A stretch of 64,000 nucleotides of DNA. Source: Eledone cirrhosa (lineage: Eukaryota). A program made the translations under genes and the position numbers. The stretch covers positions 1 through 64,000 of the forward strand of contig CAXHJY010000913.1 of the NCBI GenBank assembly GCA_964016885.1, in the 5' to 3' direction. The notes under the pieces are model-generated. The model had not been told where the DNA came from. It saw only the letters and a program-made list of their open reading frames with translations, and made no database searches. Position 1 is the stretch's first letter, and each line of letters opens with the position of its first letter. Of the stretch, positions 19,064 to 57,744 are shown piece after piece.

Positions 19064-19257
19064 CACCACACCACCACCACCACCACACCTACTACTACTA
19101 CTACAACTACTACTACTACTACTACGGATTAGTTCAAGGCAACATATTCAGATGAGCAGCAAACGGTTGATTACATTTATCCTACAGATACTTTATTATC
19201 CAGCGGAATATTTCCTCTTCACTACAATGAAAAGGATAGGAACCGATCGTGAAATCG

Positions 19258-19878
19258 GAGCAAGGAAACTATGTTTCTATTGATCTTTCCATTGCTGATA
19301 CTGTCTTTAAATCAAGGAAACTATTATGTTTCTATTGGTCTTTCCATTGCTGATACTGTCTGTCTTCAGATCAGACCAAGGAAACTATGTTTCTATTGGT
19401 CTCTCCATTGCTGATACTGTCTGTCTTCAGATCAGACCAAGGAAACTATGTTTCTATTGGTCTCTCCATTGCTGATACTGTCTGTCTTCAGATCAGACCA
19501 AGGAAACTATGTTTCTATTGGTCTCTCCATTGCTGATACTGTCTGTCTTCAGATCAGACCAAGGAAACTATGTTTCTATTGGACTCTCCATTGCTGATAC
19601 TGTCTGTCTTCAGATCAGACCAAGGAAACTATGTTTCTATTGGTCTCTCCATTGCTGATACTGTCTGTCTTCAGATCAGACCAAGGAAACTATGTTTCTA
19701 TTGGTCTCTCCATTGCTGATACTGTCTGTCTTCAGATCAGACCAAGGAAACTATGTTTCTATTGGACTCTCCATTGCTGATACTGTCTGTCTTCAGATCA
19801 GACCAAGGAAACTATGTTTCTATTGGACTCTCCATTGCTGATTCTGTCTCTCGTAATATCAGACCAAGGAAACTATGT
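19258..19878. repeat. 61-bp minisatellite, about 10 units
   Basis: Unit CCAAGGAAACTATGTTTCTATTGGTCTCTCCATTGCTGATACTGTCTGTCTTCAGATCAGA. Inner units are nearly identical and edge units are degenerate. Confidence 0.95.
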
Positions 19879-22125: not shown

Positions 22126-22159
<34 letters not shown>

Positions 22160-22802
22160 TAGACTTAATGATTAATTGATTAATTTAATTAGACAATTCT
22201 ATTGATTGGTTAATTGTTTATGTTTGTTTAATAACATGTAGTTGAGAGCTTTTATTCGGTTTGTGTAAAGGAATTTGACCGCCAAAACCGGGGGTTACCT
22301 CCCTTCGGAGAAACCACGTGACTACTAGCAGTGTTTACTACTAGTTCTTGCAACAGGCGGCGGCAGAACGAAAACTTGTTGACGAAGTAAATTCCACTGT
22401 TCTATCTTCCAAAGACCAATTAACTTGCAGGCCCCTGCAATTGGATTTTGTTGATTTCGGATATACAGAAACCTAGTGGAGATGTTATATAATATTATGT
22501 AATATATCCACGATGGTCTAGGTAACTGTCAAACATTTCCCAGAGTCGGGTTTTTCGTTGTTCTGGTCCTAGCGGCTCGCATTTCGGTTGCTGGCTTCAA
22601 TTTGCAGAGGTGTCTAAACGTAATGTTATAACTCTAAGGTAAAATTCTTTATTGAGTGCTTTTGGCTGCACTTCCCGACAGCATTCGTTAGCTTGCCCGC
22701 AACCAGAGCTTCGATTATGCTGCACTACCTTCTTGTATATATATATATATACAAGACTGGAATTGAACCATCAGCACAGTTGAGGTATGTCAGACATCAA
22801 TT

Positions 22803-22849
22803 TATTTTATCTGATGAGGACGTACTGATGAAACAGCTCAGTACCTCTG

Positions 22850-22856
<7 letters not shown>
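22803..22856 (+). ncRNA. Truncated hammerhead copy (3' strand of stem I replaced by (TA)n)
   Basis: Inverted copy of the 23095-23160 motif. It runs CUGAUGA...GAAAUA and then directly into (TA)n. Confidence 0.6.
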
Positions 22857-22891
<35 letters not shown>

Positions 22892-23010
22892 TTTGCTTAA
22901 ACTTTAATCTGTTATTTTAATAAATATTTGCTCTACGGTTCTTATACATTTGATATATATTTATCCTTATCGAGCCCTCTTTGGATTTTAGTCTTCAAAT
23001 TTATTATTAT

Positions 23011-23052
<42 letters not shown>

Positions 23053-23094
23053 CTTCAAAATATTAATAAATATAGACATTCATGTGATCAAATA

Positions 23095-23160
23095 TATTTT
23101 ATTATACGTATTTCAGAGGTACTGAGCTGTTTCATCAGTACGTCCTCATCAGATAAAATA
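23095..23160 (-). ncRNA. Type I hammerhead ribozyme, intact core
   Basis: Minus strand reads UAUUUUAU-CUGAUGA-GGACGUACUGA(UGAAACAGC)UCAGUACCUCU-GAAA-UACGUA-UA-AUAAAAUA. Stem I is 8 bp and stem III is the palindrome AUACGUAU. Confidence 0.8.
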
Positions 23161-23269
23161 AATTGATGTCTGACATACCTCAACTGTGCTGATGGTTCAA
23201 TTCCAGTCTTGGCAGTGATTAGTTATGACAAAACTCAATATTTATATACCATAAGTAGTAACATGATAG

Positions 23270-23342
<73 letters not shown>

Positions 23343-42313: not shown

Positions 42314-42907
42314 CAGTTGGTGCTACTGGTAACATGTATCCAAGTACAACCTGTCTCATGGTCGGGTCGTAGGCGACTAAACTGGCAACACCACTAAGGT
42401 TTCTTGGTGAGGAGGGTGACTTTGGACATCCTGCAGGACTAAAAACAAAACCTGTCAAAGGAGCTCTTAAGAGTCAATGGCCATCCAAAATCACCGGGAG
42501 AGATGACCCCTTAGCCTTTGTCAAGGCAGAATTCTAGGAGAAGGAAAACTCTGATATAACACCTGCAACCCTGATGGTATCCAATGATGTTGACTTGTTC
42601 TTCTTTTTTGGTAAATATCATCTTGGTTAAGAGAGTGGGACTGGCTTTGTGCAGTGCCTTTGCTCACTATAAAAGCTTCACAGCACAGGCATTGCTTTAT
42701 ATCTGGAGATCTCTCTGCACTTGTCATCACATGGTACCATGTGCCCAGCACTATGTGTCAATAATTGTCACAAGTGTAGTGTTTGTACCAGAGTTTTCAA
42801 GTTGCTGGCCGGACTAAAAAGTCACATTCGTTCAGCACATCGGTAGGGGTTCTCCTACATGGATATAAAGTAGTGGCCGTACTCGAAAACGAGTAGGCAG
42901 CCATCAT
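42311..42907 (+). mobile_element. Bipartite non-autonomous RTE derivative
   Basis: 5'UTR-like motif CTAGGAGAAGGAAAACTCTGA. The 3' part encodes a C2H2-like remnant [22 protein letters not shown] and ends in the hairpin TACTCG-AAAA-CGAGTA. No RT. Confidence 0.7.
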
Positions 42908-42953
42908 ATGTACGCATATATGTATATATACATGTATATGTGTAGATACATGT

Positions 42954-43013
<60 letters not shown>

Positions 43014-48924: not shown

Positions 48925-48982
48925 ATACTATAGTCATTTCAATGACCGGGTTCCATATAAATCCGGTGATATCATCAGGTAT
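48925..48982 (-). ncRNA. Type I hammerhead ribozyme, intact core
   Basis: Minus strand reads AUAC-CUGAUGA-UAUCACCGG...CCGGUCAUU-GAAA-UGACUA-UA-GUAU. Stems I and III are short. Confidence 0.7.
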
Positions 48983-49456: not shown

Positions 49457-49647
49457 AACATATATATATATATTATATACACATACATATATATATATTA
49501 TATACACATACATATATATATATTATATACACATACATATATATATATTATATATACATACATATATATATATACATATATATATACATATATATATATA
49601 TATACATATATATATACATATATATATATACATACATATATATATAT

Positions 49648-50258
49648 ATGGTGGCTGCCAACTCGTTTTCGAGTACGGCCACTACTTTATATCCATGTAG
49701 GAGAACCCCTACCGATGCGCTGAACGAGTGTGACTTTTTAGTCCAGCCAGCGACTTGAAAACTCTGGTACAAACACTACACTTGTGACAATTACTGACAC
49801 ATAGTGCTGGGCCCATGGTACCATGTGACGACAAGTGCAGAGAGATCTCCAGATATAAAGCAATGCCTGTGCCGTGAAGCTTTTATAGTGAGCAAAGGCA
49901 CTGCACAAAGCCAGTCCCACTCTCTTAACCAAGATGATATTTACCAAAAAGAAGAACAAGTCAACATCATTGGATACCATCAGGGTTGCAGGTGTTATAT
50001 CAGAGTTTTCCTTCTCCTAGAATTCTGCCTTGACAAAGGCTAAGGGGTCATCTCTCCCGGTGATTTTGGATGGCCATTGACTCTTAAGAGCTCCTTTGCC
50101 CTTTGACAGGTTTTGTTTTTAGTCCTGCAGGATGTCCAAAGTCACCCTCCTCACCAAGAAACCTTGGTGGGGTTGCCAGTTTAGTCGCCAACGACCCGAC
50201 CATGGGACAGGTTGTACTGGGATACATGTTACCAGTAGCACCAACTGGTGACCTGACA
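49648..50258 (-). mobile_element. Second copy of the bipartite RTE derivative
   Basis: Highly similar reverse complement of 42311-42907. Confidence 0.75.
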
Positions 50259-57500: not shown

Positions 57501-57744
57501 TAGGAACGAGTAGGACCCCGACGGCTGAGCTCAAGCCGTTTTGACGGCTAATTCTGGACTAAAAAAAAAAAAATTCTGGACTAAAAAATAAATTTTTTTC
57601 TTTTTTTAGTCCAGAATTAGCCGTCGAAACGGCTTGAGCTCAGCCGTCGGGGTCCTACTCGTTCCTATTACCCACTCTACTACCCTAAGTATTGAGTACT
57701 TTGGTGCGTTATGGTCCACCTGGTTCCTTACCACATTTCCTTCG

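Follow-up and report, generated by a model that had tools for sequence, protein, structure and literature searches.

Neither ribozyme cleavage nor microhomology in stem III sets the end points in a Penelope-like element (PLE) family of Eledone cirrhosa, whose copies end instead at two fixed internal sites, E1 and E2, downstream of the predicted cut of their hammerhead motif. The inverted pair of hammerhead-bearing pieces found in the window (the whole stretch of 64,000 nt analysed here) belongs to this family. Both pieces derive from the pseudo-LTR (pLTR) of a PLE whose protein motifs are those of the Hydra clade. The piece on the minus strand is an ordinary E1 insertion. The piece on the plus strand stops inside stem III, and we interpret it with moderate confidence as a local copy of its neighbour, probably produced when a break in the nearby (TA)n was mended by snap-back repair.

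The inverted pair, its hammerhead and its family

The window is the beginning of a small contig in a 3.0-Gb, microsatellite-rich assembly. The plus copy (22752–22854, plus strand) is identical at 103 of 103 nt to positions 23211–23109 of the minus copy. This pLTR fragment begins 5 nt past a predicted transcription start site, carries the core CUGAUGA at 22811–22817 and GAAA at 22849–22852, and stops at GAAAUA in stem III (22854), from where (TA)n continues to 22889. The minus copy (23047–23266, minus strand) is a 5'-truncated pLTR fragment ending at E1, +52 to +56 from its predicted cut, where ATAT is common to the copy and the tract. The preliminary description had reported an inverted hammerhead pair at 22752–23260, with a plus copy passing from GAAAUA into (TA)n and a complete minus copy cut at 23103/23102, and all of this was exact. 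Absent from it were the tail-to-tail geometry of the pair and the two other repeat families that lie between and beside the copies.

Between the copies are a (TA)19 tract (22852–22889), which may have been the site of a break or of priming, a 124-nt fragment of family X (22890–23013, plus strand) and a (TA)18 tract (23014–23050), the target tract where the minus copy has its 3' end. Left of the pair are a unit of family Y (22158–22735, plus strand) and (TA)8, and on the 5' side of the minus copy there is a (TA)36 tract (23271–23342). Five nucleotides at 23269–23273 (plus strand) resemble E2 ends and could be a remnant of an inverted arm ending at E2, although the match is weak. Family Y, whose 3' end abuts the plus copy, is an unrelated (TA)n-inserted repeat with partial head-to-tail tandems; among 3,373 candidates the best matches are 86–95% identical and nearly all share one 3' end. 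Its unit is about 590 nt long, with a 13-nt tail, and ends in (TA)n. The family X piece represents the 3' part of a third PLE-like family, its 5' portion being truncated. The 3' end of this family is fixed at (TA)n, and other copies of X have inverted 5' arms. X is young and very abundant, possesses two 3' end sites and has inverted 5' arms of the PLE type. It is found repeatedly next to the hammerhead family and to Y, with a TA tract in between; junctions between X and the hammerhead family also occur at loci L044 and L054. No canonical hammerhead core was found in the window fragments of X and Y.

Elsewhere the window contains a 402-nt inverted repeat (42605–43006 and 49549–49950; 92% alike, 6.5 kb apart), a tandem array of about nine 61-nt units that are 98% alike (19254–19878) and a long near-perfect hairpin of a short repeat (57508–57658). 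The hairpin also occurs beside family copies at L035, L136 and L139, and its scores against miRNA models fall below their thresholds. Two more hammerhead-core-like strings, at 48978 (minus strand) and 9241 (plus strand), belong to other families.

The motif of the minus copy (23095–23160, minus strand) has all the elements of a type I hammerhead, namely CUGANGA, GAAA, UH and stems I–III, with a predicted cut at 23103/23102. Stem I pairs 23160–23153 with 23102–23095, the core lies at 23152–23146, and stem II extends over 11 positions with a single C–C mismatch and an R.U pair at its base. Stem III is palindromic (AUACGUAU). The pattern of core plus stems I and III has 14,384 matches genome-wide and none in the reversed control; consequently, the motif is not due to chance. 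An exact 19-nt anchor gave 2,496 matches genome-wide. Stem II also covaries: five positions were chosen in each of 80 distinct stems, and 375 of these 400 cells pair, against 98/400, 176/400, 222/400 and 160/320 in slid controls, and pairs 2 and 3 alternate between G–C and A–U among subfamilies. Rfam returned no hammerhead model among eight matches for the local region, even at E 10, and none among the 150 matches listed of 258 for the whole window. The lowest-energy fold of the monomer differs from the ribozyme fold (−13.2 and −10.7 kcal/mol, a gap of 2.5; z −1.9). The hammerhead of the plus copy is predicted to be inactive because the 3' strand of stem I is missing, with four of eight pairs possible.

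A long stem II, a palindromic stem III suited to dimers and thousands of solo motifs are shared with the PLE hammerheads described by Cervera and de la Pena in 2014 (PMC4209133), where opposite-strand pairs 100–700 bp apart have already been reported. Unlike those, which are described as having a highly conserved G10.1–C11.1 pair, none of the 80 distinct stems has this pair at the base of stem II; R.U was found there in 77 of them (G.U in 60, A–U in 17) and three are unpaired. Stem I has 8 pairs. Non-LTR retrozymes are described as tandem arrays in head-to-tail order, every unit carrying a type I hammerhead (10.64898/2026.07.22.740005); we rejected this identity for the window copies, which are inverted single fragments of an ORF-bearing element and not head-to-tail tandems. 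One locus elsewhere (L135, G000:C3:149686977-149690002) does carry nine head-to-tail 81-nt units consisting of little beyond the family hammerhead core and a TA linker. The last unit terminates at the predicted cut, and the array could be a minimal retrozyme-like element or a product of slippage.

Longer copies of the family contain a broken ORF with reverse transcriptase (RT) and GIY-YIG motifs, upstream of and collinear with the pLTR. Locus L253 is a collinear pLTR–ORF–pLTR unit of about 3.8 kb. One ORF holds RT together with a C-terminal GIY-YIG in six copies (L253, L254, L256, L257, L096 and L097), every examined frame being broken, and four ORF fragments of the family gave no Pfam match. 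A 399-aa frame with Pfam matches to RVT_1 and GIY-YIG (L094:269-1465), located upstream of a family copy, belongs to a different PLE. With pLTRs on both sides of the ORF, 5' truncation, an inverted 5' arm and a one-armed tail, the family fits an EN+ PLE, an assignment that rests on motifs.

The definition of the Hydra clade given by Craig et al. in 2021 (PMC8557442) was applied to the six copies as a motif comparison. The linker motif CxCx5C, which replaces CX2-5CxxC, is present in five of the six, as is CxxC before the conserved endonuclease E; CxH is found in four, and a single Cys in the GIY-YIG core, without a CCHH motif, also in four. DKT takes the place of DKG in three copies, one has EKT and two have no match. 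The N-terminal motif reads RWR, a form of RW[K/R], in two of the six copies and in L252, whereas the clade is defined by RWK. The Neptune and Nematis clades were rejected, as neither the CX2-5CxxC linker finger nor the CCHH endonuclease motif was found. The C-terminal EN+ PLEs of the Hydra clade, including Hydra-1_Obim, are described as having the same single ORF with RT followed by GIY-YIG, the same DKT and CxCx5C linker, CxxC and CxH beside E and N, and likewise a pLTR hammerhead, (TA)n targets (most of the 100 copies of our census run into (TA)n), 5' truncation, a head-to-head inverted arm and a tail on one arm (PMC8557442). The present unit is longer than the generally <3 kb of that clade, a tendency and not a strict criterion, and the family tail of about 97 nt exceeds the 30–40 nt given there for PLEs; the window pair, being tail-to-tail, differs from the head-to-head arms. 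Hydra-1_Obim (2,507 bp, listed without a pLTR in PMC8557442) was compared only by its description, and we regard the present elements, from these motifs, as a new family of a known clade.

End sites of the family

The census comprises the first 100 of the 2,496 anchor matches by position, all of them on contig C1. Since the last bases of the anchor fall within stem III, it imposes no selection on downstream sequence; ends were mapped against two real copies. Sixty-four copies end at +52 to +62 from the predicted cut (E1) and 32 at +146 to +153 (E2), while the four others end at +7, +39, +72 and +126. None of the 100 position-ordered copies ends in stem III. The preliminary description had suggested target annealing or template switching near the cleavage site and proposed such a mapping; the ends are indeed non-random, but they mark E1 and E2 and not stem III.

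Genome-wide, eight copies, including the one in the window, run into TA at stem III or at the cut, and five of them carry the full 19-nt anchor, that is about 0.2% of 2,496. For comparison, three copies end at an unrelated AT site lying 10 nt beyond the cut, the two patterns not being exactly length-matched. Copies of a TG variant end exactly at the predicted cut in three cases (L135, L138 and L140), no more than at the AT site. In 148 copies genome-wide, stem III is a perfect 9-nt TA run. Such a stem should mis-prime most, yet only one of 30 examined copies ends there, the rest continuing past it, two with short internal deletions; stem III microhomology thus does not set the end point. It is from these three results (no stem III ends among 100 copies, eight genome-wide against three at the AT control, and one in 30 TA variants) that we exclude both cleavage and stem III microhomology as determinants of the family end points.

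TA-like microhomology alone does not choose the start either: among ten ATAT or TATA stretches between stem III and +250, two take 96 of the 100 ends and the eight others almost none. In read-through copies, from which the context was established at 4 of 20 loci, E1 and E2 each fall at an ATAT common to the (TA)n target, 3–5 nt before a small hairpin with a 2-nt bulge. These hairpins are weak (−0.9 to −5.7 kcal/mol).

The two sites also define the arms of paired insertions. All ten close pairs among the 100 copies are head-to-head and combine one E1 with one E2 arm (chance about 3e-4). Upstream of the 64 E1 copies there is an inverted E2 arm in 27 cases, another arm in three and none in the fetched flank in 34; the 32 E2 copies have an E1 arm in 11 cases and none in 21, pairs being counted from both sides. 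No E1–E1 or E2–E2 pair was found in this arm survey of the 100 copies. The pairing matches the one-sided tail described for PLEs (PMC8557442, PMC3846280). Public contigs (three runs of one sample) show a depth step of about 50- to 200-fold and loose TA ends at E2, and no start, splice or cut signal. Close to the predicted start, the head-to-head 5' junctions of L069/L070, L072 and L080 contain short stretches of the element's own first 25 nt, repeated or inverted, which resemble templated repair scars.

A similar organization is described for the Poseidon element PAc of the green anole (Frangieh et al. 2024, PMC11167929), in which two internal RT start sites were shown in vitro. As in the present family, two fixed internal sites 3' of the ribozyme define the tail, the target is AT-rich, and the ribozyme cut does not mark genomic ends; ribozyme mutants are reported to insert normally, with no reads ending at the cut. 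The PAc starts lie inside the ORF and are reported not to be homologous to the cut DNA, whereas both sites of the present family are upstream of the ATG, each at the ATAT and ahead of the bulged hairpin.

Predicted start site and a possible 5' UTR intron

Upstream of the hammerhead, the minus copy contains a predicted transcription start (23211–23246, minus strand), with a TATA-like box at 23246–23241 located 30 nt above an initiator-like TCACT whose A is at 23216. The same arrangement is described in a rotifer pLTR (PMC3846280). In 45 of the 100 copies the sequence reaches 140 nt or more above the TATAAA and TCACT motif. The 5' ends of the other 55 concentrate near it: 28 lie within 11 nt of the initiator-like A and 21 at 12–86 nt below it, while only six fall in the 128 nt above. 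This pile-up has a p value of 4e-14 against a uniform distribution, for an interval chosen after seeing the data.

A splice-donor-like GTATGT, whose function we infer from sequence, is located 38 nt past the predicted start (23173–23178, minus strand). In the wider family, GGTAYRTC occurs at most 50 nt above the hammerhead pattern match at 25 of 30 position-ordered loci. In the read-through copy L253, all four upstream ATGs fall between the donor and candidate AG acceptors located shortly after E2, and the ORF begins at the ATG that follows; a second subfamily has ATGs before the donor, which weakens this argument for an intron. Drosophila Penelope is described as having an intron 46 nt after its start (PMC2377424). 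We mention, as a tentative possibility, that the hammerhead, E1 and E2 may all lie inside a predicted 5' UTR intron, and that splicing may decide the fate of the RNA. A pattern covering two candidate acceptors in the subfamily of the window gave no match to spliced genomic copies, which fits intron retention and equally the absence of an intron. For Penelope, another explanation of intron retention has been given, the poor expression of intronless copies (PMC2377424).

If this were so, spliced RNA would lose the upstream ATGs and be translated, and priming at the 5' end would be possible on unspliced RNA only. Many short copies would then be run-off cDNAs extending from E1 or E2 to the capped start, and genomic 5' ends would form a fossil map of the start site. 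Intron retention in PLEs would be tied to the choice of template. A narrow search of the PLE literature did not find the idea of an intron holding RT start sites.

Origin of the plus copy

The plus copy is odd in three ways: its tail-to-tail orientation, its end in stem III and its identity to its neighbour. The 103-nt string occurs five times in 3.0 Gb; two of these occurrences are the present pair and the other three are all normal E1 copies. Inverted relatives downstream of a copy are found at six of the 100 census loci and are all only 67–89% alike. Since the string is present at just three other places and other inverted relatives are so divergent, the two copies very likely share one origin. 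The exact identity, together with a layout opposite to that of normal PLE pairs, makes a local origin of the plus copy likely.

The scenario we favour, snap-back repair, requires ribozyme cleavage at no step. A break would have occurred in the TA tract between Y and X. Its resected 3' (TA)n end would have folded back over about 250 nt onto the ATA(T) of stem III on the sense strand of the minus copy, synthesis would have copied about 100 nt back toward the start site, and the new end would have joined the left side through a 5-nt match produced by fold-back over (TA)8. The 5' junction of the plus copy coincides with a perfect 26-nt palindrome (22731–22756), which is made of 5 nt of Y, (TA)8 and the first 5 nt of the plus copy and is possibly the scar of this event; at least 5 palindromic nt beyond the TA tract are seen at 87 of 2,509 tracts in the fetched loci (3.5%), so the palindrome alone is weak evidence. 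Snap-back synthesis is described in SD-MMEJ (PMC5728401), as are fold-back inversions (PMC11724301) and the repair of TA-repeat breaks by MMEJ (PMC13645644). With the first two the present case shares an inverted nearby copy and short microhomology at each of the two junctions. Another tail-to-tail pair of near-identical copies (L200, G000:C3:378328592-378331623; 97.7% over 88 nt) has its arms joined by a short TA tract and one arm cut short at the AT site 10 nt past the predicted cleavage site, and is likely a fold-back duplication. Near-identical tail-to-tail pairs number 2 of 11 against 0 of 100 (p 0.009, a post hoc comparison that includes the present locus); without this locus the figure is 1 of 10 (p about 0.09, by hand).

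Several observations speak against snap-back. The insertions described are mostly <15 bp (PMC5728401) or 5–34 bp (PMC11724301), thus mostly <35 bp, and arose at engineered breaks, whereas here 103 nt would come from about 250 nt away, as inferred from one fixed locus. The priming match is only 3–4 nt, the CG stem III of the minus copy giving a 3-nt match to TA, and a TA primer pairs better at +11 to +16. The 5' end of the plus copy lies inside the retrocopy start-site hot spot that holds 28 of the 55 short copies; this fits an RNA template and is a coincidence under the snap-back model. No allele lacking the plus copy was found in the assembly.

The main rival is a same-event retrocopy. It holds that the RT of the element copied the same RNA as for the minus copy, primed at the next TA tract and mis-started at the stem III microhomology, which would explain both the 103-nt identity and a 5' end at start +5; the anole PLE protein, moreover, cuts and extends both target strands in vitro (PMC11167929). 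We nevertheless consider it unlikely: two-strand priming gives head-to-head E1 and E2 arms in ten pairs of ten, not tail-to-tail arms around a 200-nt spacer, starts in stem III concern about 5 of 2,496 copies with the same 19-nt anchor, and the plus copy has no partner arm beside it. An end originally at E1 could also have been shortened, the 52-nt tail being lost by slippage or by a microhomology deletion between stem III and (TA)n. Such losses, or mis-starts, do occur, as L134, L137 and L140 resemble normal two-armed insertions with a tailless forward arm, but the private identity and the tail-to-tail layout would need a second rare event, which makes this history improbable.

Little probability attaches to two insertions made independently into neighbouring TA tracts, or to a misassembly at a TA tract. 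The locus does hold a stack of four PLE-like pieces, and divergent tail-to-tail neighbours are found at those 6 of 100 loci, yet the subfamilies, with at least 2,496 copies, include only three more exact copies; similarly, the contig is small and no public contig spans the TA tracts, but the flank of the locus is single-copy. The reading of the preliminary description, that ribozyme-cut RNA or target annealing near the cleavage site sets the end as a regular step of the element cycle, could call upon the three TG-variant ends at the cut, and with a TA-variant template the end of the plus copy could formally lie anywhere up to the cut. Set against the census, the AT control, the TA variants and the normal insertion of the anole ribozyme mutants (PMC11167929), this reading is largely refuted and, in our opinion, very improbable. 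Its proposal of microhomology and template switching fares better for this single copy, for which microhomology is plausible and probably explains the end, at the DNA level; there is no sign that the cleavage site matters.

The pair in the window is an exception and reveals little of the way these elements move; more is gained from the census. For a clade far removed from the one examined in vitro, it supports the view that PLEs are copied from two fixed internal sites, and not from the ribozyme cut. It also yields a link between start site, intron and choice of template that can be tested.
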